From positions 15,254,001-15,318,000 of the forward strand of contig NC_087245.1 of NCBI RefSeq assembly GCF_037042905.1: a stretch of 64,000 nucleotides of DNA, in the 5' to 3' direction. The stretch comes from Lytechinus pictus (lineage: Eukaryota). A model generated the notes under the pieces. The model saw only the letters and a program-made list of their open reading frames with translations, did not search any database and was not told the DNA's origin. Each line of letters starts with the position of its first letter. Position 1 is the first letter of the stretch. Both the position numbers and the translations under genes were made by a program. Positions 1,031 to 63,740 of this stretch are shown one piece after another.

Positions 1031-1396
1031 AATGTGTTGAAAAAGACACTTGGCATTGTACCTGGACAATATGGTTTAATATTCATTCTACGCAAATGCA
1101 ATCTGAGAGTGCTCCAGCGGAGGAAGTTGAACTTCTTGCAGACGCCCGACACAACCCTGACTTCCCCGAAGATTGCTCAGAGCCGCAGGATATTCAATGC
1201 AGGACTGTAGACACACATGTGTTGTGGAATGAAACTGCTGATGCTGCTACCGTTGACGTTAGTACAGGTCTTCGCTGTATTAACATACCTGGAACGCCAC
1301 ATTGTCTCGACTATGAATGTTCCTATTTATGCTGCATTCGGGAAGTTGTCACTTGCTCAACACCGTCAACCACTACGGGAGAAACCACCACAGAAG
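1031..1396 (+). CDS. CysD exon 1 (type A, 366 bp)
   Basis: ttctgcag|aatgt...cagaag|gtaggc; CTWTIW, 10 Cys. Confidence 0.88.
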
Positions 1397-4300
1397 GTAG
1401 GCACATCAATCAAATATTTTCACTAATTCCTGGCTGTGTGACCTCTATCACTGTATACATGCATTTTAACCGTGTTGTTAGTAGAAAAACAGGTGTGTTG
1501 TTGTGACATGGAGATTAGGGATAAAGGTAAAATTTAAAGTTCTCTATAAGACAAATTCGATCTCTGTTTTTATTTTTAATATTTTTGGAAAAAAAGGATT
1601 CTAAGAAAGTGTTGCTCTTGTTGTCAATATCCATGTCAGATATAGTCCTTAAGGTTATTGAGTTTTGTTTAAATTTCATTCTCAAACAAGTTAATTGGAG
1701 AACCTGTACACTATTTCAGTGAACTGTTATTATGGAATATTTCATTAATATTATGAGTAGTGAGAATGGAATGAAACACAAATAAAATGTCATTTCAAAA
1801 GGAGTATTGTCAGAGGAGCGTGTCTGTGAAAGATTTACAGGATGGGAAAAATAGTAAGATAGTTTTAGATTGTAAAGAAAAGACTGTAATCCCATACAGA
1901 GATTGCAGTTTTGTCTCATACATGTAGGTAATGTCATTGAGATACATGGTAAGGACTTGCTCAATTAAATAAAAATAATTTGACAGATTTCTTTTAAACT
2001 TTATTTATCTTTTTTTTTTAATCGGATGCTTACAGACATATTATTCTGTTACCATTGTTGATTTCCTTTTAATCAGAACTTCTTATGAAAAAAAAAAAAA
2101 AAAAAAAATTACCCTAATTAAGGTGCAACTTACTTTCAAGTAGACTCTTGTCATATTTTATCCGTTATGATAATGTACATCTCGTTACTCTTTATATGTA
2201 TGAATCTAAAGGCACAACACCTGGAACAACTCTCGAAACAACAACAGGAACAACAACTGGAACCACTCCAGGAACAACTCCAGGCACTACAACAGGAACA
2301 ACAACTGGAACCACTCCAGGAACAACTCCAGGCACCACAACAGGAACAACAACTGGAACCACTCCAGGAACAACTCCAGGCACGACAAAAGGAACAACAA
2401 CTGGAACCACTCCAGGAACAACTCCAGGCACTACAACAGGAACAACAACTGGAACCACTCGGGGAACAACAACAAGCACTACTACAGGAACAACAACTGG
2501 AACCACTCCAGGAACAACTCCAGGCACTACAACAGGAACAACAACTGGAACCACTCCAGGAACAACTCCAGGCACTACAACAGAAACAACAACTGGAACC
2601 ACTCGGGGAACAACAACAGGCACTACTACAGGAACAACAACTGGAACCACTCCAGGAACAACTCCAGGCACTACAACAGGAACAACAACTGGAACCACTC
2701 CAGGAACAACTCCAGGCACCACAACAGGAACAACAACTGGAACCACTCGGGGAACAACTCCAGGCACGACAACAGGAACAACAACTGGAACCACTCCAGG
2801 AACAACTCCAGGCACTACAACAGGAACAACAACTGGAACCACTCCAGGAACAACTCCAGGCACCACAACAGGAACAACAACTGGAACCACTCCAGGAACA
2901 ACTCCAGGCACGACAACAGGAACAACAACTGGAACCACTCCTGGAACAACAACAACTGGAACAACTCCAGAAACAACTCCAGGCACCACAACAGGTACAA
3001 CACAGGAAACAATATCTGACACCACTCCAGAATATGGATGATATATAAATTGCAGCAGACACAGTTAGGTCAAGGTTGTGGGAAAAGGACCAACTCTTTT
3101 AAATGCTTGGTTTTTCTTTTAGGGTACAAGGGAAGGGTAAAGTGTCAGAGATGAGACCCTATCACTCAAAATCATGGGGATGTGGTCACCCTTCCTGCCC
3201 TTCCTTTTGTGTCACCGATTTCATATCACCAGCCAGAAAGGAGATGGACAGATGATCATCTTTGAAAAGTCAGTTCGTTGTTCCATTCTCTGCAGGATCA
3301 GAATAAGGTCATTTGAACTCAAATGGCATGGTGATTTAATATTCAATTAGATAAGCGCCAACTTTGATGCCTTGATCATTCTATTCTTTTGAATCAGACT
3401 TTCATTAGATCCACCAGAAGCAACAATGAGTCCATGAGCGATTGGTATTTAAAAGTTGGCCAAGTACATTTGAATAGCAACATGCTAATGCATTGAAAGT
3501 AGAATTGCAACAAATACCTTTATCAAGTGTCTATTGATATGTTATTCTACTCAAAAGGTCTATTTAATTTCTGCTTGCTGTGTCAGAAATATTTCGATAT
3601 TATAATCTTGCTTTGAAATTTTGTCCTTATGAAAGAAAGGAAAGGCCAATTGTATAAACTTGCCCATGAGGTTAAAAGGAACTTGTCTATTGCAGAAATG
3701 ATAATTTCTAGTTTGGTAGTGAATGTTGATTCACTAATGATAGTTTTGATTATATGTGTTGGTGAGGTAAATGGTTACCTGAGGGAAGAAATTCCTCAAA
3801 TGCATACGGCCTAGGTAGCCCAGCTAAAACTGGGGTAATGATACCATCATTATGTTTAGCAGGGCCAACTGGGAGAACATTTTTGGGAACTGAAGTGGCT
3901 ACCCCTGGTAGATTTGTTGTTCTTATTATTATTATCATCAATTATCAATATTGTGTGTTCTTATGAGGGCAGCTGGATTTCTGTAAGTATTTATTTCATT
4001 TATATACATAGATGGACTTTAGTTTTATTTACATGTATATTACCTTTCTAGGAAATTTCTTATGTTGTTGTTGTTGTTATTCTAATTGGTGTAAAATGAA
4101 TTGCTTCACCAACGGTCTCTGAAAATTAACGACAATTGTCAAACTTCTACAACTACTTCTAAAACTTTTTTACTACTCCATTTTATTTCACTATTACCAC
4201 TTAAAGTGACTTTAGTCAATTTTTTTTCTCAAAATGTAATGCTAATCCATGCCCATTTGTTCTGCAGAGTGTGTTGAAAAAGACACTTGGCATTGTACCT

Positions 4301-7300
4301 GGACAATATGGTTTAATATTCATTCTACGCAAATGCAATCTGAGAGTGCTCCAGCGGAGGAAGTTGAACTTCTTGCAGACGCCCGGCACAACCCTGACTT
4401 CCCCGAAGATTGCTCAGAGCCGCAGGATATTCAATGCAGGACTGTAGACACACATGTGTTGTGGAATGAAACTGCTGATGCTGCTACCGTTGACGTTAGT
4501 ACAGGTCTTCGCTGTATTAACATACCTGGAACGCCACATTGTCTCGACTATGAATGTTCCTATTTATGCTGTATTCGGGAAGTTGTCACTTGCTCAACAC
4601 CGTCAACCACTACGGGAGAAACCACCACAGAAGGTAGGCACATCAATCAAATATTTTCACTAATTCCCGGCTGTGTGACCTCTATCACTGTATACATGCA
4701 TTTTAACCGTGTTGTTAGTAGAAAAACAGGTGTGTTGTTGTGACATGGAGATTAGGGATAAAGGTAAAATTTAAAGTTCTCTATAAGACAAATTCGATCT
4801 CTGTTTTTATTTTTAATATTTTTGGAAAAAAAGGATTCTAAGAAAGTGTTGCTCTTGTTGTCAATATCCATGTCAGATATAGTCCTTAAGGTTATTGAGT
4901 TTTGTTAAAATTTAATTCTCAAACAAGTTAATTGGAGAACCTGTACACTATTTCAGTGAACTGTTATTATGGAATATTTCATTAATATTATGAGTAGTGA
5001 GAATGGAATGAAACACAAATAAAATGTCATTTCAAAAGGAGTATTGTCAGAGGAGCGTGTCTGTGAAAGATTTACAGGATGGGAAAAATAGTAGGATAGT
5101 TTTAGATTGTAAAGAAAAGACTGTAATCCCATACAGAGATTGCAGTTTTGTTTCATACATGTAGGTAATGTCATTGAGATACATGGTAAGGACGTGCTCA
5201 ATTAAATAAAAATAATTTGTCTGATTTCTTTGAAACTTTATTTATCTTTATTTTTTTTAATTGGATGCTTACAGACATACTATTCTGTTACTTTTTTTTA
5301 TTTCCTTTTAATCAGAACTTCTTATAAAAAAACAAAAACAAAGAATAACCCTAATTAAGGAGCAACTTACTTTCAAGCAGAATGTTGTCATATTTCATCC
5401 GTTATCATGATAATGTACATCTTGTTATTCTTTATATTTATGAATCTAGGAACAACACCTGGAACAACAACAGGCACCACAACAGGAACAACAACTGGAA
5501 CCACTCCGGGAACAACAAGAGGCACCACAACAGGTACAACAACTGGAACTACTCCAGAAACAACAACAGGTACCACAACAGGAACAACAACTGGAACCAC
5601 TCCAGGAACAACTCCAGGCACTACAACAGGAACAACAACTGGAACCACTCCAGGAACAACAACAGGCACTACAACAGGAACAACAACTGGAACCACTCCG
5701 GGAACAACAACAGGCACCACAACAGGTACAACAACTGGAACTACTCCAGAAACAACAACAGGTACCACAACAGGAACAACAACTGGAACCACTCCAGGAA
5801 CAACTCCAGGCACTACAACAGGAACAACAACTGGAACCACTCCAGGAACAACTCCAGGCACCACAACAGGAACAACAACTGGAACCACTCCAGGAACAAC
5901 AACAGGCACTACAACAGGAACAACAACTGGAACCACTCCAGGAACAACAACAGGCACTACAACAGGAACAACAACTGGAACCACTCCTGGAACAACTCCA
6001 GGCACTACAACAGAAACAACAACTGGAACCACTCGGGGAACAACAACAGGCACTACTACAGGAACAACAACTGGAACCACTCCAGAAACAACAACAGGTA
6101 CTTCAACAGGAACAACAACTGGAACCTCTCCAGAAACAACAACAGGTACCACAACAGGAACAACAACTGGAACCACTCCAGGAACAACAACAGGTTCCAC
6201 AACAGGAACCACAACTGGAACAACTCCAGAAACAACAACAGGCACCACAACAGGAACAACAACTGGAACCACTCCAGGAACAACAACAGGCACCACAACA
6301 GGAACAACGCCTGGAACCACTCCAGGAACAACAACAGGCACTACAGCAGGAACAACAACTAGAACCACTCCAGAAACAACAACAAGTACAATAACTGGAA
6401 CCACATCAGGAACAACAACTGGAACCACTCCAGAAACAACTCCAGCCACCACAACAGGTACAACACAGGGAACAATTGGCACAATATCAGGAAACATTCC
6501 AGAATAGGGATAATGTATGAATGGCAATAGACAGAGTTAGGTCAAGTTTGTGAGAAAAGGACCATTTTTTATAAATGCTTTGGTTACTTTTTTAGTGAAG
6601 AAGGTAAGGGTAAAATGTCAGAGATGAGACTTTATCACTCAAAAATCATAGGGATGAGGTCACCCTTCCTGCCCTTCCTTTTGTGTCACCGACTTGATAT
6701 CACCAGCCAGAAAGGAGATGGACAGATGATCATCTTTGAAAAGCTAGTTCATTGTTCCATTCTGTGCATGATGAGAATAAGGTCATTTGAACTCAAATAG
6801 TATGAAAGTTTTAATATTCTTTTGAATTGTGCTTTTCATTAGATCCTCCGGAATCAGAAATGAGTCAATGAGCAAGTGGTATTTAAGAGTTGGCCAGGTA
6901 CATTGGAAAGCAACATGCTAATGTATTAAAAGTAGATTTGCATTAAATACCTTATAAAGTGTTCATTGGTGTGCTATTCCAGTCACCAGTGTCGGCCACA
7001 CAGAAATGTTGTTAGCCTAACAGAACAGTAAGCCCAGTTTCATCTTCAGGATTATGAATTCAAAACATTCATTTCAATGTGTAAGTAATGCATTGCTGTA
7101 TTAAACATCGGTATTGCTGTCACATTACTGATTGTAACAGGGCTCTGTTAGCGCATTGTTAGCACTAACAATGTTTCTGTGTGGTCAGTACAGGTCTTTT
7201 CAATTTCTGCTTGCTATGTCGAGCCTATTTAGATATTAATATCTTGCTTTGTGATTTACCCATCCTTATGAAAGAAAGGAAGGGTCAATTGTATAAACTT

Positions 7301-10300
7301 GCCGATGAGGTAAAGAGGAGCTTGTCTATTGCATAAATTATAGTTTCTAGTTTGGTAGTGAATGTTGATTTACTGATTGATAGTTATAATGATATGTGTA
7401 AGTAGGTGTAATAAATGGTTACCCTGTAGGAAGAAATTCCACAAATGCTTTTGGCCTTGGCAGTCTATCAAATGCTAGGGTATGAATACCATCATCATGT
7501 TAAGCCAGACCTGCTCGGATAAAAGTTTTGTGAACTGAAGTGGCTAACCCTGGTAAATATGTTGTTATTATTATCATTATTATTGCTATGATTACTATGA
7601 TTATTAATTATTATCATTATTTTATTATTACCTGTTCCTATGAAGGCAGCTGGATTTGTTTAAGTGTGTCTTTCATCATAGTCAGAGATGGACTTGAGTT
7701 TTATTTGTATTACCTTGCTCAGGTAAATTTATTTTATTGTTATGGTACTAATTGTATCTCCCGAACAGAGTTCGGAGGATGCTATGGATTTGGCCTTATC
7801 GCGCCGCCGCAGAGATTCCCTTGTGAGTGCTCTATCAGCTGCATTTTTTCTTTGATCATCTTCAAATTTGGCATGAAGTTCAATTATGTTATAGCGAAGC
7901 CATCTATCGATTTTGTTGTAGGCGGAGACATTGTTCCATGGTAACAAAAGTTTTTGTGGGAATAGAGATTTCCTTGTGAGTGCTCTACTGGCTGCATTTC
8001 TTCTCCAATTATCTTCATATTTGTCATGAAGGTCCATTATGGTAACGTAAAGCCGCCTAATGATTTTGGAGTGGGTGGAGGCATGGTTTCCATGGTAACC
8101 ATATTTTTGTGGAAAATTTGGTAAAACCTGTAACTTGTGCTCTTTTTCCAGTTTGTCATAACAGTTGGCACACAGAAGCAATATTGGAAGGTGAAGCGAA
8201 GATGCCTATCATTTTTTATGGGGGTCTTAGGGTTAGGTTTACAATTATATCCAGATTACTCTATAATTGTATTCCCCAACAGGGGATACTGGACAATACT
8301 TTAGGTTCTGCAGAGTCACGCTACTGCGTCATATTATTGTCATCAAATTTCCTACCCAAAGGCAAATGTGGGCAGGGTCATTGTCGCCATGATAATTGTA
8401 TTTATTTGTCAAATTTCTGTGTGAGCTCTACATATCGCAAGGACGGATGACGCTGTGGGTTCGGGGGATACATGTGCTTGGCCACGCGACCCGCCGAGCA
8501 TCTCTAGTTGGTTTGAAATTACAGTAATTGCTTCACCAGATTGTCCTGATATGTAATAACAATTGCAGAATATTACGAGAACTCCTTTATACTAGAACTC
8601 CTTATACTACACTTTCTGTCACTTTTTAATGTAACACTTAAAATGACTTTTTCCAGTCATATTCTCCTACTATATTGGCAATCCAAAACTCCTTTTGTCT
8701 TGCAGAGTGTGTTCCCGGCAGAGAATACAAATGTATTTGGACTGAATGGATTAATAATGATTCTGGACAATTGCAATCTGAAAGTACTCCAGCTGAGGAA
8801 GTTGAACTTCTTGAAGATGCCCGGCACTTCCCCGGTTTCCCCAAAGTTTGCAACGTATTCGATATCCGGTGCAGGACCGTAGACACACATGTGTCGTGGA
8901 ATGAAACTACTGACGCTGTTACCGTTGATGTGAATACAGGTCTTCGCTGTATTAATATACTAGGAAGACCAATATGTCTGGACTATGAATGTAGATGGCT
9001 GTGCTGCAGTTGGCACACTGTCACTTGCTCACCACCTGGAACAACCACAGAAGGTAGTTGCATCAATCAAGTATTTTATCTAATTCCTAGCAGTATGACC
9101 AATATCACTGTAAATATGCCTTTAAAAGGTTTTGTTAATTGGAAAACATGTGTGTTGTTCTGATGCAGAAGTAAGGGATAAAGATAAAAGCTTTTTTTTA
9201 GACAAACATGATATCTACATGTATGTTTTTTTTTCTTAATATCTTAGGAAAATAAAGGATTGTGGGGAAAGTGTTGCTCTTTGTGTCAATATTCATGTCA
9301 GAGATGCTCTTTTAAGTTATTGAGATTTGTTTGAATTTCATTATCAAACAGTTTCATTGGAGGACATGTACACAAATTTAGTGAATTTACCCTTTGTTAT
9401 AGAATATTTCATGAACATTATGATTGGTGAAAATTGAATCAAACACAAATGAAATGTGATTTCCAAAGAAGAAATGTGAAAGGAGCATGATTGTGAAAGA
9501 TTTACAGGATGGGGAAAACAGTAAGATAGTTTTGAATTGTAGATTAATGATAGTAATCCTGTTTGGGGATGGAAGGGCAAGGACTTGCTCAATTCAATAG
9601 AAATGATTTGTCTGCATTTTTTAAAAAGTTAAAGATTTCTATTTTCATTTTGAATTGGATACTTGCAGACATAATATTCTGTTACCGTGGTTGATTTCCT
9701 TTTAATTGCGTTTCATTTGCTACTTACTTTGGAACAGAATATTGTCATCTTTCATCCTTTATGATAATATACATCTAGTTCTTCTTTACATGAACAAATC
9801 TAGGAACAACAACTGGAACCACTCCAGGCACAACAACAGGTACCACAACAGGAACAACAACTGGAACCACAACAGGAACAACAACAGGTACCACAACAGG
9901 AACAACAACTGGAACCACAACAGGTACCACAACAGGAACAACAACTGGAACCACTCCAGGAACAACTCCAGCCACCACAACAGGTACAACACAGGGAACA
10001 ATTGGCACAATATCTGGAAACATTCCAGAATATGGATAATGTATGAATGGCAGTAGACACAGTTAGGTCAAGTTTGTGAGAAAAGGACCATTTTTTATAA
10101 ATGCTTTGGTTACTCTTTTAATGAAGAAGGGAAGTTTTTGTCAGAGATGATACTTTATCACTCAAAAATCATAGGGATGGGGTCACCCTTCCTGCACTTC
10201 CTTTTGTGTCACCGACTTGATATCACCAGCCAGAAAGGAGATGGACAGATGATCATCTTTGAAAAGCTAGTTCGTTGTTCCACTCTGTGCATGATGAGAA

Positions 10301-52300: not shown

Positions 52301-55300
52301 AACCACTCCAGGAACAACTCCAGCCACCACAACAGGTACATTACAGGGAACAATTGGCACAATATCTGGAAACATTCCAGAATATGGATAATGTATGAAT
52401 GGCAGTAAACACAGTTTGGTCAAGTTTGTGAGAAAAGGACCATTTTTTATAAATGCTTTGGTTACTCTTTTAGTGAAGAAGGGAAGGGTAAAGTGTCAGA
52501 GATGATACTTTATCACTCAAAAATCATAGGGATGGGGTCACCCTTCCTGCCCTTCCTTTTGTGTCACCGACTTGATATCACAAGCCAGAAAGCAGATGGA
52601 CAGATGATCATCTTTGAAAAGCTAGTTCGTTGTTCCATTCTGTGCATGATGAGAATAAGGTCATTCGAACTCAAATAGCATGAAAGTTTTAATATTCTTT
52701 TGAATTGTGCTTTTCATTAGATCCTCCGGAATCAGAAATGAGTCAATGAGCAAGTGGTATTTAAGAGTTGGCCAAGTACATTGGAAAAAGTAACATGCTA
52801 ATGTATTAAAAGTAGAATTGCCACAAATACCTTGATAAAGTATTTATTGATATGCTATTCTAGTCACCAGTTCCATTCAATTTCTGCCTGCTATGTCAGG
52901 CATATTTAGATATTAATATCTTGCTTTGTGATTTACCCATCCTTATGAAAGAAAGGAAGGGTCAATTGTATAAACTTGCCGATGAGGCAAAGAGGAGCTT
53001 GTCTTTTGGAGAAATGATAGTTTCTATGTTGGTAGTGAATGTTGATTTACTGATTGATAGTTATTGGAGGCGCGATAGCTCAGTCGGTAGAGCGGGGTAC
53101 TCGTATTCCGGTGACCCAGGTTCGATTCCCACTTTGTGCGCTAGTGCCCTTTGGTAAGGCATTAATCCTCATTACCAGGTCCTTCGGAGAGGACCTTAAG
53201 CCGTCGGTCCTCTGGTTGCTTGCTTACAAGCATTCATGCTTTCTTAGCAATCAGGTAAAAAATCACCACCATCAATATATAGATGGCTATGGTGAGATAT
53301 TTATGTATGTTATAATTATATGTGTACATGTAGGTGTAATAAATGTTTACCCTGTAGAAAGAAATTCCACAAATGCTTTGGGCCTAGGCAGTCCGTCAAA
53401 TGCTAGGGTATGAATACCATCATCATGTTAAGCCAGACCTGCTCGGATAACAGTTTTGGGAACTGAAGTGGCTACCCCTGGTAAAAATGTTGTTGTTATT
53501 ATTATTATTAGTATTATTGCTATGATTAATATGAATTTCAATTATTAGTATTATTAGCATTATTTTATCATTAGTGTTCTCATGAAGGCGTTTCTTTTAT
53601 TATATTCAGAGATGGACTTGAGTTTTATTTGTATTACCTTGCTCAGGTAAATTTATTTTCTTGTTGTTGTGGTATTAATTGGTTTGAAATTAATTGCTTC
53701 ACCAGCTTGTCCTGATATGTCATGACAATTGCAGAATACTCAACTATTACTACATGTAGAACTCCTTATACTGCACTTTATCCCTCTCTTTAATGTAACA
53801 CTTAAAATGACTTTTTTTCCAGTCATATTCTACTACTTTATTGGCAATCCAAAACTCCTTTTGTCTTGCAGAGTGTGTTCCCAGCAGAGATTACAAATGT
53901 ATTTGGACTGACTGGATTAATAATGATTCTGGACAAATGCAATCTGAGAGTGCTCCAGCTGAGGAAGTTGAACTTCTTGCAGATGCCCGGCACTTCCCCG
54001 GTTTCCCTGAAGATTGCAGCGTATTCGGTATCCGGTGCAGGACAGTAGACACACATGTGTTGTGGAATGAAACTACTGACGCTGTTACCGTTGATGTGAA
54101 TACAGGTCTTCGTTGTATTAATATACTAGGAAGACCAATATGTCTGGACTATGAATGTAGCTGGCTGTGCTGCAGTTGGCACACTGTCACTTGCTCACCA
54201 CCTGGAACAACCACAGAAGGTAGTTGCATCAATCAAGTATTTTTACTAATTCCTGGTAGTATGACCAATGTCACTATAAATATGCATTTAAAAGTTTTGT
54301 TAATTGGAAAACATGTGTGTTGTCGTGATAAGGAAGTAATGGATAAAGATAAGAGCTTTTTTTTAAAGACAAACGCGATATCTACATGTATGTTTTTTTT
54401 CTTCTTAATATCATTTGAAAATAAGGTATTGTGGGGAAAGTGTCGCTCTTGGTGTCAATATTCATGTGAAAGATGCTCTTTTAAGTTATTGAAATTTGTT
54501 TGAATTTCATTATCGAACAGTTTCATTGGAGGAGCTGTACAGAAATTTAGTGAATTTACCCTTTGTTATGGAATATTTCATGAACATTATGATTGGTGAA
54601 AATTGAATCAAACACAAATGAAATGTGATTTGAAAAGAAGAAATCTGAAAGGAGCATGATTGTGAAAGATTTACAGGATGGGAAAAACAGTAGGATAGTT
54701 TTGAATTGTAGATTAATGACAGTAATCCTGTTTGGGGATTTCAGTTTTGTCACATACATGTACGTGATGTCATTGTGATATAGGGCAACGACTTGCTCAA
54801 TTTAATAGAAATGATTTGTCTGCATTTTTTTTAAAGTTAAAGATTTCCTTTTTCATTTTGAATTGGATACTTGCAGACATAATATTCTGTTACCATGGTT
54901 GATTTCCTTTGAATTGCGTTTCATTTGCTACTTACTTTGGAACAGAATATTGTCATATTTCATCCTTTATGATAATATACATCTAGTTCTTCTTTACATG
55001 AACAAATCTAGGAACAACAACTGGAACCACTATAGAAACAACAACAGGCACTACAACAGGAACAACAACTGGAACCACTATAGAAACAACAACAGGTACC
55101 ACAACAGGAACAACAACTGGAACCACTCCAGGCACAACAACAGGTACCACAACAGGAACAACAACTGGAACCACAACAGGAACAACTACAGGTACCACAA
55201 CAGGAACAACAACTGGAACCACAACAGGTACCACAACAGGTACCACAACAGGAACAACAACTGGAACCACTCCAGGAACAACTCCAGCCACCACAACAGG

Positions 55301-58300
55301 TACATTACAGGGAACAATTGGCACAATATCTGGAAACATTCCAGAATATGGATAATGTATGAATGGCAGTAAACACAGTTTGGTCAAGTTTGTGAGAAAA
55401 GGACCATTTTTTATAAATGCTTTGGTTACTCTTTTAGTGAAGAAGGGAAGGGTAAAGTGTCAGAGATGATACTTTATCACTCAAAAATCATAGGGATGGG
55501 GTCACCCTTCCTGCCCTTCCTTTTGTGTCACCGACTTGATATCACAAGCCAGAAAGCAGATGGACAGATGATCATCTTTGAAAAGCTAGTTCGTTGTTCC
55601 ATTCTGTGCATGATGAGAATAAGGTCATTCGAACTCAAATAGCATGAAAGTTTTAATATTCTTTTGAATTGTGCTTTTCATTAGATCCTCCGGAATCAGA
55701 AATGAGTCAATGAGCAAGTGGTATTTAAGAGTTGGCCAAGTACATTGGAAAAAGTAACATGCTAATGTATTAAAAGTAGAATTGCCACAAATACCTTGAT
55801 AAAGTATTTATTGATATGCTATTCTAGTCACCAGTTCCATTCAATTTCTGCCTGCTATGTCAGGCATATTTAGATATTAATATCTTGCTTTGTGATTTAC
55901 CCATCCTTATGAAAGAAAGGAAGGGTCAGTTGTATAAACTTGCCGATGAGGCAAAGAGGAGCTTGTCTTTTGGAGAAATGATAGTTTCTATGTTGGTAGT
56001 GAATGTTGATTTACTGATTGATAGTTATTGGAGGCGCGATAGCTCAGTCGGTAGAGCGGGGTACTTGTATTCCGGTGACCCGGGTTCGATTCCCACTTTG
56101 TGCGCTAGTGCCCTTTGGTAAGGCATTAATCCTCATTACCAGGTCCTTTGGAGAGGACCTTAAGCCGTCGGTCCTCTGGTTGCTTGCTTTGCTTACAAGC
56201 ATTCATGCTTTCTTAGCAATCAGGTAAAAAATCACCACCATCAATATATAGATGGCTATGGTGAGATATTTATGTATGTTATAATTATATATGTACATGT
56301 AGGTGTAATAAATGGTTACCCTGTAGAAAGAAATTCCACAAATGCTTTGGGCCTAGGCAGTCGGTAAAATGCTAGGGTATGAATACCATCATCATGTTAA
56401 GCCAGACCTGCTCGGATAACGGTTTTGGGAACTGAAGTGGCTACCCCTGGTAAAAATGTTGTTGTTATTATTATTATTAGTATTATTGCTATGATTAATA
56501 TGAATTTCAATTATTAGTATTATTAGCATTATTTTATCATTAGTGTTCTCATGAAGGTGTTTCTTTTATTATATTCAGAGATGGACTTGAGTTTTATTTG
56601 TATTACCTTGCTCAGGTAAATTTATTTTCTTGTTGTTGTGGTATTAATTGGTTTGAAATTAATTGCTTCACCAGCTTGTCCTGATATGTCATGACAATTG
56701 CAGAATACTCAACTATTACTACATGTAGAACTCCTTATACTGCACTTTCTCCCTCTCTTTAATGTAACACTTAAAATGACTTTTTTCCAGTCATATTCTA
56801 CTACTTTATTGGCAATCCAAAACTCCTTTTGTCTTGCAGAGTGTGTTCCCAGCAGAGATTACAAATGTATTTGGACTGACTGGATTAATGATGATTCTGG
56901 ACAAATGCAATCTGAGAGTGCTCCAGCTGAGGAAGTTGAACTTCTTGCAGATGCCCGGCACTTCCCCGGTTTCCCTGAAGATTGCAGCGTATTCGGTATC
57001 CGGTGCAGGACAGTAGACACACATGTGTTGTGGAATGAAACTACTGACGCTGTTACCGTTGATGTGAATACAGGTCTTCGTTGTATTAATATACTAGGAA
57101 GACCAATATGTCTGGACTATGAATGTAGCTGGCTGTGCTGCAGTTGGCACACTGTCACTTGCTCACCACCTGGAACAACCACAGAAGGTAGTTGCATCAA
57201 TCAAGTATTTTCACTAATTCCTGGTAGTATGACCAATGTCACTATAAATATGCATTTAAAAGTTTTGTTAATTGGAAAACATGTGTGTTGTCGTGATAAG
57301 GAAGTAATGGATAAAGATAAGAGTTTTTTTTTAAAGACAAACACGATATCTACATGTATGTTTTTTTTCTTCTTAATATCATTTGAAAATAAGGTATTGT
57401 GGGGAAAGTGTCGCTCTTGGTGTCAATATTCATGTCAAAGATGCTCTTTTAAGTTATTGAAATTTGTTTGAATTTCATTATCGAACAGTTTCATTGGAGG
57501 AGCTGTACAGAAATTTAGTGAATTTACCCTTTGTTATGGAATATTTCATGAACATTATGATTGGTGAAAATTGAATCAAACAGAAATGAAATGTGATTTG
57601 AAAAGAAGAAATGTGAAAGGAGCATGATTGTGAAAGATTTACAGGATGGGAAAAACAGTAGGATAGTTTTGAATTGTAGATTAATGACAGTAATCCTGTT
57701 TGGGGATTTCAGTTTTGTCACATACATGTACGTGATGTCATTGTGATATAGGGCAACGACTTGCTCAATTTAATAGAAATGATTTGTCTGCATTTTTTTT
57801 AAAGTTAAAGATTTCCTTTTTCATTTTGAATTGGATACTTGCAGACATAATATTCTGTTACCATGGTTGATTTCCTTTTAATTGCGTTTCATTTGCTACT
57901 TACTTTGGAACAGAATATTGTCATATTTCATCCTTTATGATAATATACATCTAGTTCTTCTTTACATGAACAAATCTAGGAACAACAACTGGAACCACTA
58001 TAGAAACAACAACAGGCACTACAACAGGAACAACAACTGGAACCACTATAGAAACAACAACAGGTACCACAACAGGAACAACAACTGGAACCACAACAGG
58101 AACAACTACAGGTACCACAACAGGAACAACAACAGGAACCACAACAGGTACCACAACAGGTACCAGAACAGGAACAACAACTGGAACCACTCCAGGAACA
58201 ACTCCAGCCACCACAACAGGTACATTACAGGGAACAATTGGCACAATATCTGGAAACATTCTAGAATTTGGATAATGTATGAATGGCAGTAGACACAGTA

Positions 58301-61300
58301 AGATCAAGTTTGTGAGAAAAGGACCATTTTTTATAAATGCTTTGGTTACTCTTTTAGTGAAGAAGGGAAGGGTAAAGTGTCAGAGATGATACTTTATCAC
58401 TCAAAAATCATAGGGATGGGGTCACCCTTCCTGCCCTTCCTTTTGTGTCACCGACTTGATATCACCAGCCAGAAAGGAGATGGACAGATGATCATCTTTG
58501 AAAAGCTAGTTCGTTGTTCCATTCTGTGCATGATGAGAATAAGGTCATTCGAACTCAAATAGCATGAAAGTTTTAATATTCTTTTGAATTGTGCTTTTCA
58601 TTAGATCCTCCGGAATCAGAAATGAGTCAATGAGCAAGTGGTATTTAAGAGTTGGCCAAGTACATTGGAAAAAGTAACATGCTAATGTATTAAAAGTAGA
58701 ATTGCCACAAATACCTTGATAAAGTATTTATTGATATGCTATTCTAGTCACCAGTTCCATTCAATTTCTGCCTGCTATGTCAGGCATATTTAGATATTAA
58801 TATCTTGCTTTGTGATTTACCCATCCTTATGAAAGAAAGGAAGGGTCAATTGTATAAACTTGCCGATGAGGCAAAGAGGAGCTTGTCTTTTGCAGAAATG
58901 ATAGTTTCTATGTTGGTAGTGAATGTTGATTTACTGATTGATAGTTATTGGAGGCGCGATAGCTCAGTCGGTAGAGCGGGGTACTCGTATTCCGGTGACC
59001 CAGGTTCGATTCCCACTTTGTGCGCTAGTGCCCTTTGGTAAGGCATTAATCCTCATTACCAGGTCCTTCGGAGAGGACCTTAAGCCGTCGGTCCTCTGGT
59101 TGCTTGCTTACAAGCATTCATGCTTTCTTAGCAATCAGGTAAAAAATCACCACCATCAATATATAGATGGCTATGGTGAGATATTTATGTATGTTATAAT
59201 TATATGTGTACATGTAGGTGTAATAAATGGTTACCCTGTAGAAAGAAATTCCACAAATGCTTTGGGCCTAGGCAGTCCGTCAAATGCTAGGGTATGAATA
59301 CCATCATCATGTTAAGCCAGACCTGCTCGGATAACAGTTTTGGGAACTGAAGTGGCTACCCCTGGTAAAAATGTTGTTGTTATTATTATTATTAGTATTA
59401 TTGCTATGATTAATATGAATTTCAATTATTAGTATTATTAGCATTATTTTATCATTAGTGTTCTCATGAAGGCATTTCTTTTATTATATTCAGAGATGGA
59501 CTTGAGTTTTATTTGCATTACCTTGCTCAGGTAAATTTATTTTCTTGTTGTTGTGGTATTAATTGTTTTGAAATTAATTGCTTCACCAGCTTGTCCTGAT
59601 ATGTCATGACAATTGCAGAATACTCAACTATTACTACATGTAGAACTCCTTATACTGCACTTTCTCCCTCTCTTTAATGTAACACTTAAAATGACTTTTT
59701 TCCAGTCATATTCTACTACTTTATTGGCAATCCAAAACTCCTTTTGTCTTGCAGAGTGTGTTCCCAGCAGAGATTACAAATGTATTTGGACTGACTGGAT
59801 TAATGATGATTCTGGACAAATGCAATCTGAGAGTGCTCCAGCTGAGGAAGTTGAACTTCTTGCAGATGCCCGGCACTTCCCCGGTTTCCCTGAAGATTGC
59901 AGCGTATTCGGTATCCGGTGCAGGACAGTAGACACACATGTGTTGTGGAATGAAACTACTGACGCTGTTACCGTTGATGTGAATACAGGTCTTCGTTGTA
60001 TTAATATACTAGGAAGACCAATATGTCTGGACTATGAATGTAGCTGGCTGTGCTGCAGTTGGCACACTGTCACTTGCTCACCACCTGGAACAACCACAGA
60101 AGGTAGTTGCATCAATCAAGTATTTTCACTAATTCCTGGTAGTATGACCAATGTCACTATAAATATGCATTTAAAAGTTTTGTTAAATGGAAAACATGTG
60201 TGTTGTCGTGATAAGGAAGTAATGGATAAAGATAAGAGCTTTTTTTTAAAGACAAACGCGATATCTACATGTATGTTTTTTTTCTTCTTAATATCATTTG
60301 AAAATAAGGTATTGTGGGGAAAGTGTCGCTCTTGGTGTCAATATTCATGTGAAAGATGCTCTTTTAAGTTATTGAAATTTGTTTGAATTTCATTATCAAA
60401 CAGTTTCATTGGAGGAGCTGTACACAAATTTAGTGAATTTACCCTTTGTTATGGAATATTTCATGAACATTATGATTGGTGAAAATTGAATCAAACACAA
60501 ATGAAATGTGATTTGAAAAGAAGAAATGTGAAAGGAGCATGATTGTGAAAGATTTACAGGATGGGAAAAACAGTAGGATAGTTTTGAATTGTAGATTAAT
60601 GACAGTAATCCTGTTTGGGGATTTCAGTTTTGTCACATACATGTACGTGATGTCATTGTGATATAGGGCAACGACTTGCTCAATTTAATAGAAATGATTT
60701 GTCTGCATTTTTTTTTAAGTTAAAGATTTCCTTTTTCATTTTGAATTGGATACTTGCAGACATAATATTGTGTTACCATGGCTGATTTCCTTTGAATTGC
60801 GTTTCATTTGCTACTTACTTTGGAACAGAATATTGTCATATTTCATCCTTTATGATAATATACATCTAGTTCTTCTTTACATGAACAAATCTAGGAACAA
60901 CAACTGGAACCACTATAGAAACAACAACAGGCACTACAACAGGAACAACAACTGGAACCACTATAGAAACAACAACAGGTACCACAACAGGAACAACAAC
61001 TGGAACCACAACAGGTACCACAACAGGAACAACAACTGGAACCACAACAGGTACCACAACAGGAACAACAACTGGAACCACTCCAGCCACCACAACAGGT
61101 ACCACACAGGGAACAATTCGCACAATATCTGGAAACATTCCAGAATATGGATAATGTATGAATGGCAGTAGACACAGTTAGGTCAAGTTTGTGAGAAAAG
61201 GACAATTTTTTATAAATGCTTTGGTTACTCTTTAAGTGAAGAAGGGAAGGGTAAAGTGTCAGAGATGATACTTTATCACTCAAAAATCATAGGGATGGGG

Positions 61301-63740
61301 TCACCCTTCCTGCCCTTCCTTTTGTGTCACCGACTTGATATCACCAGCCAGAAAGCAGATGGACATATGATCATCTTTGAAAAGCTAGTTCGTTGTTCCA
61401 TTCTGTGCATGATGAGAATAAGGTCATTTGAACTCAAATAGCATGATAGTTTTAATATTCTTTTGAATTGTGCTTATCATTAGATCCTCCGGAAGCAGAA
61501 ATTAGTCAATGAGCAAGTGGTATTTAAGAGTTGGCCAAGTACATTGGAAAAGCAACATGCTAATGTATTAAAAGTAGAATTGCGACAAATACCTTGATAA
61601 AGTCACTAGTCACTAGTCACTAGTTCCATTCAATTTCTGCCTGCTATGTCAGGCATATTTAGATATTAATATCTTGCTTTGTGATTTACCCATCCTTATG
61701 AAAGAAAGGAAGGGTCAATTGTATAAACTTGCCGATGAGGTAAAGAGGAGCTTGTCTATTGCAGAAATTATAGTTTCCAGTTTGATAGTGAATATTGATT
61801 TACTGATTGATAGATATAATGATATGTGTAGGTGTAATAAATGGTTACCCTGTAGGAAGAAATTCCACAAATGCTTTGGGCCTAGGCAGTCTGTCAAATG
61901 CTAGGGTATGAATACCATCATCATGTTAAGCCAGACCTGCTCGGATAACAGTTTTGGGAACTGAAGTGGCTACCCCTGGTAAAAATGTTGTTGTTATTAT
62001 CATTATTAATATTATTGCTATGATTAATATGATTATCGATTATTAGTATTATTAGCATTATTTTATCATTAGTGTTCTCATGAAGGTGTTTCTTTCATTA
62101 TATTCAGAGATGGACTTGAGTTTTATTTGTATTACCTTGCTCAGGTAAATTTATTTTCTTGTTGTTGCGGTATTAATTGGTTTGAAATTAATTGCTTCAC
62201 CAGCTTGTCCTGATATGGAATGACAATTGCATAATACTCAACTATTACTAGAACTCCTTATACTGCACTTTCTCCCACTCTTTAATGTAACACTTAAAAT
62301 GACTTTTTTCCAGTCATATTCTACTACTTTATTGGCAATCCAAAACTCCTTTTGTCTTGCAGAGTGTGTTCCCAGCAGAGATTACAAATGTATTTGGACT
62401 GACTGGATTAATGATGATTCTGGACAAATGCAATCTGAGAGTGCTCCAGCTGAGGAAGTTGAACTTCTTGCAGATGCCCGGCACTTCCCCGGTTTCCCCG
62501 AAGAATGCAACGTATTCGGTATCCGGTGCAGGACAGTAGACACACATGTGTCGTGGAATGAAACTACTGACGCTGTTACCGTTGATGTAAATACAGGTCT
62601 TCGCTGTATTAATATACTAGGAAGACCAATTTGTCTGGACTATGAATGTAGCTGGCTGTGCTGCAGTTGGCACACTGTCACTTGCTCACCACCTGGAACA
62701 ACCACAGAAGGTAGTTGCATCAATCAAGTATTTTCACTAATTCCTGGTAGTATGACCAATATCACTATAAATATGCATTTAAAAGTTTTGTTAATTGAAA
62801 AACATGTGTGTTGTCATGATGCGGAAGTAAAGGATAAAGAAAAAAGTTTTTTTTTAGACAAACACGGTATCTACATGTATGTTTTTTTTCTTCCTAATAT
62901 CATTTGAAAATAAGGTATTGTGGGGAAAGTGTCGCTCTTGGTGTCAATATTCATGTCAAAGATGCTCTTTTAAGTTATTGAGATTTGTTTGAATTTCATT
63001 ATCGAACAGTTTCATTGGAGGAGCTGTACAGAAATTTAGTGAATTTACCCTTTGTTATGGAATATTTCATGAACATTATGATTGGTGAAAATTGAATCAA
63101 ACACAAATGAAATGTGATTTGAAAAGAAGAAATGTGAAAGGAGCATGATTGTGAAAGATTTACAGGATGGGAAAAACAGTAGGATAGTTTTGAATTGTAG
63201 ATTAATGACAGTAATCCTGTTTGGGGATTTCAGTTTTGTCACATACATGTACGTGATGTCATTGCGATATAGGGCAACGACTTGCTCAATTTAATAGAAA
63301 TGATTTGTCTGCATTTTTTTCAAAGTTAAAGATTTCCTTTTTCATTTTGAATTGGATACTTGCAGACATAATATTCTGTTACCATGGTTCATTTCCTTTT
63401 AATTGCGTTTCATTTGCTACTTACTTTGGAACAGAATATTGTCATATTTCATCCTTTATGATAATATACATCTAGTTCTTCTTTACATGAACAAATCTAG
63501 GAACAACAACTGGAACCACTATAGAAACAACAACAGGCACTACAACAGGAACAACAACTGGAACCACTATAGAAACAACAACAGGTACCACGACAGGAAC
63601 AACAACTGGAACCACAACAGGTACCACAACAGGAACAACAACTGGAACCACAACAGGTACCACAACAGGAACAACAACTGGAACCACAACAGGTACCACA
63701 ACAGGAACAACAACTGGAACCACTCCAGCCACCACAACAG
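1031..63740 (+). CDS. Internal part of a giant mucin-like gene: 19 x (CysD/WxxW exon + Thr/Gly PTS exon); about 13.5 kb coding (~4,500 aa) if fully spliced; both ends outside the window
   Basis: All exons are bounded by AG/GT, are multiples of 3 nt, are phase 1-1 and lack stops. The CysD motifs C-x-W-x-x-W, C-R, GLxC, C-x-DYE and CC match the CysD (Mucin2_WxxW) domain of MUC2/MUC5-type mucins. Confidence 0.85.
2212..2994 (+). CDS. PTS exon 1 (GTTP/GTTT repeats, 783 bp)
   Basis: Acceptor tctaaag|gc. The GT at 2995 is the only GT I could find between the acceptor and the in-frame TGA at 3039-3041. Confidence 0.8.
3761..3940 (+). mobile_element. Old 5'-truncated SINE (3' part plus ATT tail); homologues occur in the intron upstream of the other CysD exons
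   Basis: ggtgaggtaaatggttacc...gaactgaagtggctacccctggta followed by (att)n. The start aligns with the body of the SINE at 22775-23035 (ggtgaggagaatgggtacc). Confidence 0.65.
4268..4633 (+). CDS. CysD exon 2 (type A, 366 bp)
   Basis: ctgcag|agt...gaag|gtaggc; protein identical to exon 1. Confidence 0.88.
5450..6457 (+). CDS. PTS exon 2 (up to 1008 bp)
   Basis: atctag|ga...acag|gtacaa; earlier identical donors exist, so the end is uncertain. Confidence 0.7.
6987..7193. mobile_element. ~200 bp MITE-like insertion unique to this intron
   Basis: Imperfect TIRs ggccacacagaaatgttgttag (6994-7015) and ctaacaatgtttctgtgtggtc (7165-7186); absent from paralogous introns. Confidence 0.7.
7753..8508 (+). 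mobile_element. DINE-1/Helentron-associated non-autonomous element (HINE-like), 756 bp
   Basis: Inserted between T|T of the empty site ggtactaat|tggtttg. SubTIRs tgtatctcccgaac (7753-7766) and gttcgggggataca (8459-8472); 5' hairpin ccgaac-aga-gttcgg; short GCC run; two ~153 bp internal repeats (7811, 7964); 3' hairpin tgcttggc/gccgagca; CTAGT end. Confidence 0.8.
8706..9053 (+). CDS. CysD exon 3 (type B, 348 bp)
   Basis: ttgcag|agtg...gaag|gtagtt; CIWTEW. Confidence 0.88.
9804..9983 (+). CDS. PTS exon 3 (180 bp)
   Basis: atctag|ga...acag|gtacaa. Confidence 0.72.
10508..10555 (-). ncRNA. Minimal type I hammerhead ribozyme in the Penelope pLTR
   Basis: Minus strand: cauucuc CUGAGGA cgacaag aacaca cuugucG AAA cGUC gagauug. 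Core CUGANGA, 7 bp stem II, GAAA, palindromic ACGU stem III, GUC cleavage triplet, stem I with one mismatch. Confidence 0.88.
10827..12640 (-). pseudogene. Penelope RT-GIY-YIG polyprotein remnant (5' truncated, one in-frame stop at 11476-11478, one frameshift near 11040)
   Basis: ADKGNATVV, GxPKIHK-PLRPIVS, SFDVESLFT, GAAMGSPLSP, RYVDD, VYRKPTHTDRYL, then GVYQIPCECGKVYIGETGR and SAIIDH...REALEI. Confidence 0.92.
13557..13904 (+). CDS. CysD exon 4 (type B)
   Basis: ttgcag|...gaag|gtacat. Confidence 0.88.
14657..15004 (+). CDS. PTS exon 4 (348 bp)
   Basis: atctag|...acag|gtacaa. Confidence 0.72.
16293..16640 (+). CDS. CysD exon 5 (type B)
   Basis: ttgcag|...gaag|gtacat. Confidence 0.88.
17394..17777 (+). 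CDS. PTS exon 5 (384 bp)
   Basis: atctag|...acag|gtacaa. Confidence 0.72.
19069..19416 (+). CDS. CysD exon 6 (type B)
   Basis: ttgcag|...gaag|gtacat. Confidence 0.88.
20211..20522 (+). CDS. PTS exon 6 (312 bp)
   Basis: atctag|...acag|gtacat. Confidence 0.72.
21253..21460 (+). mobile_element. tRNA-derived SINE, copy 1 of 12
   Basis: A box tagctcagtcggtagagc, B box ggttcgattcc, then a non-tRNA body with hairpin aggtcct-tcggag-aggacct; absent from units 1-6 and 19. Confidence 0.85.
22059..22406 (+). CDS. CysD exon 7 (type C)
   Basis: ttgcag|...gaag|gtagtt; CIWTDW. Confidence 0.88.
22506..22638. repeat. DIRS ITR core (3' copy); partner at 27143-27279
   Basis: gaggatagcatttcccagg...gtaaccatcttttcaa is the reverse complement of 27153-27279 (one indel seen). 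Confidence 0.95.
22775..23035 (+). mobile_element. tRNA-derived SINE nested in the DIRS element (resembles sea-urchin SINE2/SURF-type elements)
   Basis: A box gtggtctagtggtta, B box ggttcaaattcc, body gtgctgcactcaacccaggtgaggagaatgggtacc, LINE-like tail gcgctatat. Confidence 0.8.
23115..23231. other. DIRS internal complementary region (ICR)
   Basis: 23115-23191 is the reverse complement of the left terminus 22435-22511; 23187-23231 is the reverse complement of the right terminus 27269-27313; the halves meet at gaattc. Confidence 0.92.
23590..24340 (-). pseudogene. Decayed DIRS tyrosine recombinase
   Basis: Motif remnants read by eye, in the expected order: YPFTW (24267-24281), LLTAITS/QRAQTL (24106-24143), YSTM (for HSTR), SSEAIFAS; many stops and frameshifts. 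Confidence 0.6.
24480..25740 (-). pseudogene. Decayed DIRS RT/RNase H
   Basis: Motif remnants read by eye: MIMDL (~25715), YIED for YxDD (25419-25430), GF...PTQ (25267-25311), IIEL/AIY (~24520). Confidence 0.55.
27143..27279. repeat. DIRS ITR core (5' copy)
   Basis: Reverse complement of 22506-22638. Confidence 0.95.
28073..28384 (+). CDS. PTS exon 7 (312 bp)
   Basis: atctag|...acag|gtacat. Confidence 0.72.
29115..29322 (+). mobile_element. tRNA-derived SINE copy 2
   Basis: Near-identical to copy 1, same intron position. Confidence 0.85.
29921..30268 (+). CDS. CysD exon 8 (type C)
   Basis: Same splice sites and motifs as exon 7. Confidence 0.88.
31061..31348 (+). CDS. PTS exon 8 (288 bp)
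   Basis: atctag|...acag|gtacat. Confidence 0.72.
32079..32286 (+). mobile_element. tRNA-derived SINE copy 3
   Basis: As copy 1. Confidence 0.85.
32885..33232 (+). CDS. CysD exon 9 (type C)
   Basis: Same splice sites and motifs as exon 7. Confidence 0.88.
34025..34312 (+). CDS. PTS exon 9 (288 bp)
   Basis: atctag|...acag|gtacat. Confidence 0.72.
35043..35250 (+). mobile_element. tRNA-derived SINE copy 4
   Basis: As copy 1. Confidence 0.85.
35849..36196 (+). CDS. CysD exon 10 (type C)
   Basis: Same splice sites and motifs as exon 7. Confidence 0.88.
36989..37276 (+). CDS. PTS exon 10 (288 bp)
   Basis: atctag|...acag|gtacat. Confidence 0.72.
38007..38214 (+). mobile_element. tRNA-derived SINE copy 5
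   Basis: As copy 1. Confidence 0.85.
38813..39160 (+). CDS. CysD exon 11 (type C)
   Basis: Same splice sites and motifs as exon 7. Confidence 0.88.
39953..40240 (+). CDS. PTS exon 11 (288 bp)
   Basis: atctag|...acag|gtacat. Confidence 0.72.
40971..41178 (+). mobile_element. tRNA-derived SINE copy 6
   Basis: As copy 1. Confidence 0.85.
41777..42124 (+). CDS. CysD exon 12 (type C)
   Basis: Same splice sites and motifs as exon 7. Confidence 0.88.
42918..43205 (+). CDS. PTS exon 12 (288 bp)
   Basis: atctag|...acag|gtacat. Confidence 0.72.
43936..44143 (+). mobile_element. tRNA-derived SINE copy 7
   Basis: As copy 1. Confidence 0.85.
44741..45088 (+). CDS. CysD exon 13 (type C)
   Basis: Same splice sites and motifs as exon 7. 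Confidence 0.88.
45881..46264 (+). CDS. PTS exon 13 (384 bp)
   Basis: atctag|...acag|gtacat. Confidence 0.72.
46995..47202 (+). mobile_element. tRNA-derived SINE copy 8
   Basis: As copy 1. Confidence 0.85.
47800..48147 (+). CDS. CysD exon 14 (type C)
   Basis: Same splice sites and motifs as exon 7. Confidence 0.88.
48940..49371 (+). CDS. PTS exon 14 (432 bp)
   Basis: atctag|...acag|gtacat. Confidence 0.72.
50102..50309 (+). mobile_element. tRNA-derived SINE copy 9
   Basis: As copy 1. Confidence 0.85.
50908..51255 (+). CDS. CysD exon 15 (type C)
   Basis: Same splice sites and motifs as exon 7. Confidence 0.88.
52048..52335 (+). CDS. PTS exon 15 (288 bp)
   Basis: atctag|...acag|gtacat. 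Confidence 0.72.
53066..53273 (+). mobile_element. tRNA-derived SINE copy 10
   Basis: As copy 1. Confidence 0.85.
53872..54219 (+). CDS. CysD exon 16 (type C)
   Basis: Same splice sites and motifs as exon 7. Confidence 0.88.
55012..55299 (+). CDS. PTS exon 16 (288 bp)
   Basis: atctag|...acag|gtacat. Confidence 0.72.
56030..56242 (+). mobile_element. tRNA-derived SINE copy 11 (visibly diverged; 5 bp duplication)
   Basis: As copy 1, with a few substitutions and ttgcttgctttgctt. Confidence 0.85.
56840..57187 (+). CDS. CysD exon 17 (type C, WINDDS variant)
   Basis: ttgcag|...gaag|gtagtt. Confidence 0.88.
57980..58219 (+). CDS. PTS exon 17 (240 bp)
   Basis: atctag|...acag|gtacat. Confidence 0.72.
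58950..59157 (+). mobile_element. tRNA-derived SINE copy 12
   Basis: As copy 1. Confidence 0.85.
59755..60102 (+). CDS. CysD exon 18 (type C, WINDDS variant)
   Basis: ttgcag|...gaag|gtagtt. Confidence 0.88.
60895..61098 (+). CDS. PTS exon 18 (204 bp)
   Basis: atctag|...acag|gtacca. Confidence 0.68.
62363..62710 (+). CDS. CysD exon 19 (C/B mosaic: EECNVFG, HVSW)
   Basis: ttgcag|...gaag|gtagtt. Confidence 0.88.
63501..63740 (+). CDS. PTS exon 19 (240 bp)
   Basis: atctag|...acag|gtacca. Confidence 0.68.

Follow-up and report, generated by a model that had tools for sequence, protein, structure and literature searches.

An array of two-exon CysD and threonine-rich cassettes in Lytechinus pictus, likely the central domain of one gel-forming mucin gene, carries a moved CysD cysteine

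Introduction

Is a long row of alternating CysD and threonine-rich exons in the echinoid Lytechinus pictus read as a single mucin transcript, or does each repeated unit stand as a small gene of its own? CysD domains are reported to be non-covalent cross-links that set pore size (PMC3195396, PMC6861317), the length of the PTS sequence between them is thought to tune their interactions (PMC7599080), and the domain is described as having arisen in Bilateria and joined PTS sequence in deuterostomes (PMC4948705). We analyzed a 64,000-nucleotide stretch of the L. pictus genome (NC_087245.1, positions 15,254,001 to 15,318,000), hereafter the window, with coordinates counted from its first letter. A reading made from the letters alone had proposed that 19 CysD and 19 Thr/Gly exons, duplicated together with their introns, form one spliced transcript of intron-separated cassettes, and had set this layout against that of human MUC5AC and MUC5B. 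The human contrast holds: MUC5AC, MUC5B and MUC2 share with the window the CysD fold (8OV0, 8OER, 6TM6 and 8S03) and the alternation of CysD with PTS, whereas their central domain is described as a single exon (PMC9712336) with reported totals of nine, seven and two CysDs, respectively (PMC11912381).

Results

Nineteen cassettes in one reading frame

A search by translation and splice motif recovered 19 CysD exons in strict alternation with 19 Thr/Gly exons from 1031 to 63740, all on the + strand, and all 38 exons proved to be stop-free and of phase 1-1, as had been claimed. Repeats held in symmetric, in-frame exons of this kind are a feature of splice-polydisperse mucins. The CysD exons are 366 nt long in units 1-2 and 348 nt long in units 3-19, every length being divisible by three, and each of the 19 has a TGCAG acceptor, an AAG/GT donor, ten cysteines and no stop. 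The Thr/Gly exons range from 60 to 336 codons, with 63-72% Thr. Joined in silico, the 38 exons give 13,491 nt, or 4,496 codons with no stops, in which the CysD period is usually 212 aa. Positions 1-1030 (+ strand) match intron B of unit 1 at 98% identity, so that a further unit (unit 0) lies upstream, and the 3' end of the window falls inside intron B of unit 19; the array exceeds both window ends and, judged by its sequence, likely comprises at least 20 units.

Three blocks can be told apart, A (units 0-2), B (units 3-6) and C (units 7-18), followed by a transitional unit 19. Two CysD exons of the same block are 99-100% identical; the figure drops to about 95% when B is compared with C and to 75% when A is compared with the other units, and intron identity tracks exon identity along the array. 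Block A contains CysD exons 1 (1031-1396, 366 nt, recognized by translation, splice motifs and Pfam) and 2 (4268-4633), paired with Thr/Gly exons 1 (2212-2994, 261 codons) and 2 (5450-6457, 336 codons). The type B CysD exons are 3 (8706-9053, 348 nt, recognized by evidence that includes alignment and Pfam), 4 (13557-13904), 5 (16293-16640) and 6 (19069-19416), each followed by its Thr/Gly exon: 3 (9804-9983, 60 codons), 4 (14657-15004, 116 codons), 5 (17394-17777, 128 codons) and 6 (20211-20522, 104 codons).

Block C opens with CysD exon 7 (22059-22406) and Thr/Gly exon 7 (28073-28384, 104 codons), the latter preceded by an intron with a 4.9 kb insert. CysD exons 8 (29921-30268) and 9 (32885-33232) are also of type C, and further CysD exons follow at 35849-36196 (10), 38813-39160 (11), 41777-42124 (12), 44741-45088 (13), 47800-48147 (14), 50908-51255 (15), 53872-54219 (16), 56840-57187 (17, in which one change removes the first N-glycan sequon) and 59755-60102 (18). 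Seven Thr/Gly exons here have 96 codons, namely 8 (31061-31348), 9 (34025-34312), 10 (36989-37276), 11 (39953-40240), 12 (42918-43205), 15 (52048-52335) and 16 (55012-55299); the others are 13 (45881-46264, 128 codons), 14 (48940-49371, 144 codons), 17 (57980-58219, 80 codons) and 18 (60895-61098, 68 codons). Unit 19 consists of a CysD exon with eight changes from type C (62363-62710) and a Thr/Gly exon of 80 codons (63501-63740), and the window ends in the next intron.

Splice joints in RNA

The donor of the Thr/Gly exons is ambiguous from DNA alone, because these exons contain 99 internal GT sites, all in frame with the true donor and arising from glycine GGT codons, and because every Thr/Gly exon reads through to a stop about 18 codons beyond its end. 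RNA from two raw runs (X19 and X21, about 6% of each) and two contig runs (X1 and X15), four of the 21 runs listed, was mapped at low depth to one unit-length stretch, 31290-34075. A joint from 31348 to 32885 (Thr/Gly to CysD; GT..AG, 1,536 nt skipped) was present in ten X21 reads with seven different starts and in one X1 contig, and in none of the X19 reads, a run of low depth. The joint from 33232 to 34025 (CysD to Thr/Gly; GT..AG, 792 nt skipped) was carried by one X19 read and five X21 reads, as well as by contigs of both X1 and X15. Over the raw reads there are thus ten Thr/Gly-to-CysD and six CysD-to-Thr/Gly joints. Reads of the CysD exon were all of one mate strand, their first mates lying on the minus strand, an orientation that for most stranded libraries indicates + strand RNA.

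These joints match the exon borders that had been predicted, namely the donor of Thr/Gly exon 8 (between 31348 and 31349), both borders of CysD exon 9 and the acceptor of Thr/Gly exon 9. Reads joining a PTS exon to the next CysD exon, the observation on which the sequence-only reading had been staked, were found, and with both joints seen in RNA its proposal of one spliced transcript of intron-separated CysD and PTS cassettes is supported. Splicing of + strand RNA at the predicted GT..AG sites indicates that the cassettes form a single reading frame of 4,496 codons or more; with near-identical units and short reads the pairing of individual units is invisible, and back-splicing or cassette skipping would give identical junction letters.

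The stop that follows every Thr/Gly exon within about 18 codons (after exon 8, about 18 decayed repeat codons and then the stop, at 31349-31404, + strand) would also fit each cassette being a separate small gene, or an alternative terminal exon ending at that post-repeat stop. The Lytechinus variegatus model P0001 does finish in such a tail: its end is nearly identical to the translation of 31349-31404 and its equivalents, although the spacer repeats of the two are wholly different. However, the reads splice the upstream donor to the next CysD exon, RNA depth was zero across 31383-31568, at the stop and beyond, in all four runs, and the units have no signal-peptide exon. Since both joints occur in RNA, a separate gene per unit is refuted, and the wider reading, terminal exons included, is largely refuted by the joints and the zero depth past the stop; we regard it as scarcely credible. 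The P0001 ending is probably an annotation artefact, as no RNA depth spans the tail stop.

Variants in the reads matched unit types 3-6 in X19 and 7-16 in 10 of 12 X21 reads at one site, and those of units 17-19 occurred in the remaining two X21 reads at that site and in the X1 and X15 contigs. Either several blocks are transcribed or the major unit type differs among individuals. At 32935 (position 51, in CysD exon 9) a sequon-removing allele, carried in the window by units 17-19, was the sole form in the X1 and X15 contigs and was present in two of 12 X21 reads, a distribution that hints at a major unit type differing among individuals. Near 31291-31353, the matching ends of a few X19 reads flank another repeat, of Thr/Gly/Pro/Ser/Glu, and these reads point to further spacer types in other parts of the gene or in a paralog.

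The same exon layout would permit a mucin tuned by splicing, in which skipped exons or cassettes, or internal donors, yield a ladder of product lengths and cross-link spacings within one animal: all 38 exons are of phase 1-1, every one of the 99 internal GT sites is in frame, and there are reported precedents in Xenopus FIM-C.1, polymorphic through alternative splicing (PMC7177656), and in an isoform of chicken MUC2 with an in-frame PTS deletion (PMC3549977). However, in the four low-depth runs we saw no CysD-to-CysD or PTS-to-PTS joint, that is, no single-exon skip, and no use of an internal donor. Joints were listed from three reads or one contig upwards, rare forms are lost from contigs, joints between two PTS exons are difficult to place, and short reads are blind to whole-cassette skips. 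The X1 and X15 contigs run unbranched for 53 nt and 19 nt, respectively, into the upstream Thr/Gly exon end, the X15 length fitting, from how contigs break, a variant at -20 that marks units 18-19; all internal donor contexts diverge from the terminal one within 12 nt. We consider such a splice ladder unlikely. Product length looks to be set mainly by genomic copy number, with splicing constitutive where sampled.

In units 18-19 (60895-61098 and 63501-63740) several internal sites have the same 9-mer as the terminal donor. The last donor of a Thr/Gly exon is used over as many as eight look-alike internal sites, and Thr/Gly exon 1 has no internal GT at all.

The CysD fold and a relocated cysteine

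The Pfam profile Mucin2_WxxW (PF13330), which the sequence-only reading had named as a check, matched all three of the CysD exons tested (E 9e-13 to 2e-9; 38-49 bits against a cut-off of 22.4), and the WxxW motif is present in all 19. CysD exon 8 served as the query for searches and folding. Its predicted structure (pLDDT 85.6) places C55 and C95 in long strands, and a structure search returned seven mucin CysD entries at the top (Z 8.1-10.7; next best 5.0), so that the predicted fold is the CysD beta-sandwich.

Ten cysteines are present in every one of the 19 copies, and in every copy one of them has moved from its conserved position. Compared with CysD structures of MUC2 and MUC5B, position 73, just before the G-L-x-C motif, is Val and not Cys in 19/19 copies, while position 95, the Val/Ile of D-Y-E-V-R, is Cys in 19/19; the aligned human CysD structures have their cysteine at 73, not 95. 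This exchange lies beyond anything claimed from the sequence earlier, and it makes the window CysD a variant of the domain that still falls within the PF13330 family.

We surveyed 225 distinct CysD cores (286 domains). Eleven were set aside for gaps; 196 had both C55 and C73, 11 (from three proteins) had neither, four had C55 and C95 without C73, and three showed other patterns. The four C55/C95 cores are that of the window, two of P0001 and one of P0056/P0006. C95 was absent from 137 further cores, of which 127 were canonical, four had C55 only and six were gapped. In a 24-row tree the seven rows with the exchange form one branch (100/96) whose sister, P0059, is canonical. The exchange would therefore have a single origin and, among the cores surveyed, is shared only with L. 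variegatus and one ENA cluster; it appears to be lineage-specific and new. CysD repeats lacking both C55 and C73 occur in P0046, P0048 and P0044, another natural loss of the same putative disulfide.

Which partner C55 has lost and gained may be read from three lines of evidence. C55 and C73 are lost together in some cores. Charge pairs 54/96 and 56/94 are conserved, sometimes in reversed order, which places residue 55 opposite 95. A published MUC2 disulfide, C1365-C1379 (PMC11912381), maps through alignment to the CysD structures onto C81-C90, and with that pair taken C73 is left for C55 in the canonical fold. The disulfide has most likely been rewired from C55-C73 to C55-C95: CysD would keep its fold and five disulfides, the lost C73 being replaced by C95 on the adjacent strand as the partner of C55. 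On the contrary side, a mass-spectrometric map reported for MUC2 CysD2 pairs cysteines sequentially, equivalent to C48-C55 and C73-C81 here (PMC3195396); the crystal connectivity is described as differing from that map (PMC7599080). Also contrary are six cores with C55 but neither C73 nor C95, and one with the reverse, several of which look misaligned or decayed. Taking both sides together, we think it probable that one CysD disulfide has been naturally rewired.

Relatives and the type of mucin

Thr-rich tandem repeats (63-72% Thr) interrupted by CysD domains within one transcript, with both joints present in RNA, are what is expected of a gel-forming mucin. No VWD, signal peptide or cystine knot was found within the 64-kb window. 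The closest named relative is the L. variegatus 'integumentary mucin C.1-like' protein P0001 (680 aa), with CysD 81% identical to that of the window. P0001 shares the Cys73-to-Cys95 shift and the same donor use; unlike the window, it is a fragmentary automatic model of four units with a 162-aa period and another spacer repeat. Among full-length proteins the nearest relative is Diadema setosum XP_072175733.1 (P0002), a predicted VWD mucin of 6,382 aa; by eye and homology it was assigned a signal peptide, a VWD region, 17 CysDs separated by Thr-rich spacers and an end resembling a cystine knot. Mucin-5B-like models of D. antillarum (P0061, P0063 and P0007) are also related, and P0061 has four VWDs and then four CysDs of the same subfamily as the window. 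The Diadema mucins resemble the window in their homogeneous array of CysD and Thr-rich spacer, CysD subfamily and ten cysteines per core, but have canonical C73, no C95 and a different spacer repeat. Several Diadema models end in intron-like read-through right after a spacer, which suggests that exon borders follow the spacers in these genes too.

L. variegatus P0062 is a complete VWD mucin with a single canonical CysD and, by eye, a cystine-knot-like end, implying several echinoid paralogs and a possible VWD-less product. The array could then be a secreted poly-CysD/PTS glycoprotein without VWD or cystine-knot ends, a non-polymerising, mucus-stiffening additive resembling Oikosin1, which is reported to have 13 CYS domains; recombinant poly-CYS is reported to stiffen mucus (PMC6861317). 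The 64 kb contain no VWD, and no annotated protein linking the exchanged CysD to VWD was found among proteins of 63-2000 aa or 50% cluster representatives, nor up to 3,509 aa in a search by Diadema words (best 120 of 1,028 matches); above 3,509 aa the search covered 50% cluster representatives only. Against this, the Diadema models P0061 and P0002 place sister-type CysDs after four VWDs, P0001 and two VWD mucin models lie on one 96.7 Mb contig, and annotation is reported commonly to split mucin genes (PMC4948705). We judge a VWD-less product to be distinctly unlikely. In our view the window quite likely supplies the central domain of a single gel-forming mucin gene, Lytechinus-like and of the echinoid type that combines VWD, CysD/PTS and cystine knot. 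A L. pictus 'mucin-2' described as ectodermal at 24-48 h may or may not be this gene (PMC12516323).

Growth and age of the array

The introns were indeed duplicated with the exons, as units 8-12 are 99.8-100% identical across 2,964 bp, and intron and exon identity and shared variants agree with the earlier claim that the array grew by copying exons and introns together. Switches between blocks lie inside a unit, from A to B in or beside Thr/Gly exon 2 and from B to C in intron A of unit 6, between CysD exon 6 and its Thr/Gly exon. Blocks with within-unit switches are the pattern expected from unequal crossing-over. In the growth that we propose, unequal crossing-over of a two-exon unit of about 3 kb would have produced three homogeneous blocks with recombinant borders and carried an intronic SINE into 12 units, with single transposon insertions coming later.

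Units 8-13 differ at just 1-6 of 2,682 aligned columns, and such similarity could mean that units 7-17 were inflated by assembly error and that the real array is shorter. Yet every pair among units 7-17 differs (at 1-34 of the 2,682 columns) and variants are shared mostly by neighbours, which argues against a pure copying artefact of assembly, and the Thr/Gly exons of these units vary from 80 to 144 codons. An inflated array is therefore improbable.

The tree joins the L. variegatus CysD to units 3-4 (99/96) and leaves type A outside, so that the CysD subtypes look older than the split from L. variegatus and the copies within a block look young. A comparison of types A and C gives pN 0.20 and pS 0.40, indicating modest constraint.

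Insertions in the introns

A tRNA-like SINE lies in intron B of units 6-17 (32079-32290 and 11 further copies, with starts from 21253 to 58950). Rfam gave no match over 20000-33000, and the tRNA-derived label thus goes by the look of the element. In both raw RNA runs the SINE draws thousands of diverged, mostly one-strand reads, which are SINE-containing RNA from across the genome. Single insertions occur in introns of units 2, 3 and 7. That in intron B of unit 3 (10442-12719, minus strand) has a 401-codon frame with Pfam RVT_1 (E 7e-12), 39-nt inverted ends and a 12-nt target duplication at 10430 and 12720; GIY-YIG-like motifs were noted by eye in two broken downstream frames, where Pfam gave no match, and we take the element to be a Penelope-like retroelement. 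The 4.9 kb insert in intron A of unit 7 (22440-27308) has 128-nt inverted terminal arms (98%) and an internal segment (23115-23231), one half of which is perfectly complementary to the left end (77 nt) and the other to the right end (45 nt), a layout that resembles that of DIRS-type retrotransposons. It has no long frame, and none of seven frames tested matched a Pfam family above cut-off (one weak DUF220 match fell below), so that it is probably non-autonomous. In intron B of unit 2, 7755-8504, which contains a 153-nt two-copy repeat, and 6991-7190 are inserted relative to the reference unit.

Discussion

The layout of this gene is unusual yet precedented. Multi-exon repeats are found in mouse Muc19 and FIM-B.1. 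Chicken Muc13 is described as having one repeat per exon, with splice control of length proposed in 2006, and has no CysD (PMC1552070); chicken MUC2, with four CysDs, is reported to spread PTS and CysD across exons 32-45, its flanking DNA containing repeated elements (PMC3549977); and Xenopus FIM-C.1, which is splice-polymorphic, uses trefoil modules. Spider aggregate glue genes were considered as a precedent and rejected, each being reported to have a single intron (PMC6553539). In the literature searched, which comprised titles and abstract openings with few subscription papers, we found no account of this gene or of a moved CysD cysteine, and no description of a strict two-exon CysD and PTS cassette array of about 20 repeats. 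Desseyn 2009 reportedly deals with how CYS domains evolved in concert, and exon layout or cysteine exceptions may be treated there.

The suggestion that CysD number and density here are notably high did not survive comparison. Database models reach 15-32 copies, some at shorter periods: Rhinatrema has 32 CysDs at a median period of 117 aa, Diadema P0002 17 at 302 aa, amphioxus 16 at 171 aa, Synchiropus 15 at 228 aa and D. antillarum 12 at 144 aa. We therefore rejected a record in either number or density.

By analogy with MUC5-type mucins, the array would work like their central domain. The Thr-rich spacers would become stiff O-glycosylated rods, as mucin biology leads one to expect, and a CysD about every 200 residues would act as a non-covalent sticker setting the mesh size of the gel. 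Stickers at that spacing would make for a tight gel, which copy number would adjust from one individual to the next, much as the number of CysDs is reported to vary in human MUC5AC (PMC11344006). A further reading would make the mesh tunable within an animal, through selective use of cassettes or latent donors in tissues other than those sampled, together with a labile C55-C95 bond that lets CysD stickers form covalent links between chains. That the bond is labile is speculative, an idea taken from general protein chemistry, and we give this reading a low chance; if it held, a single allele would produce a series of cross-link spacings. The general understanding of mucins stays as it is unless skipping or new chemistry is demonstrated.

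The locus nevertheless bears on how mucins are built. Humans carry the CysD/PTS alternation in one giant exon; this array shows that it can also be assembled, and changed in length, from cassettes bounded by introns. Because the introns were copied along with the exons they record the history of crossovers, so that concerted evolution of CysD becomes readable unit by unit. Unit-specific variants make the idea of splice-controlled mucin length, proposed for chicken Muc13 (PMC1552070), testable with long reads in a tractable group. Finally, the CysD cysteine pattern has been treated as fixed, and a compensated Cys/Val exchange in every copy is an exception to it, offering a natural means to learn which disulfide is required for the fold and in what way CysD stickers interact.
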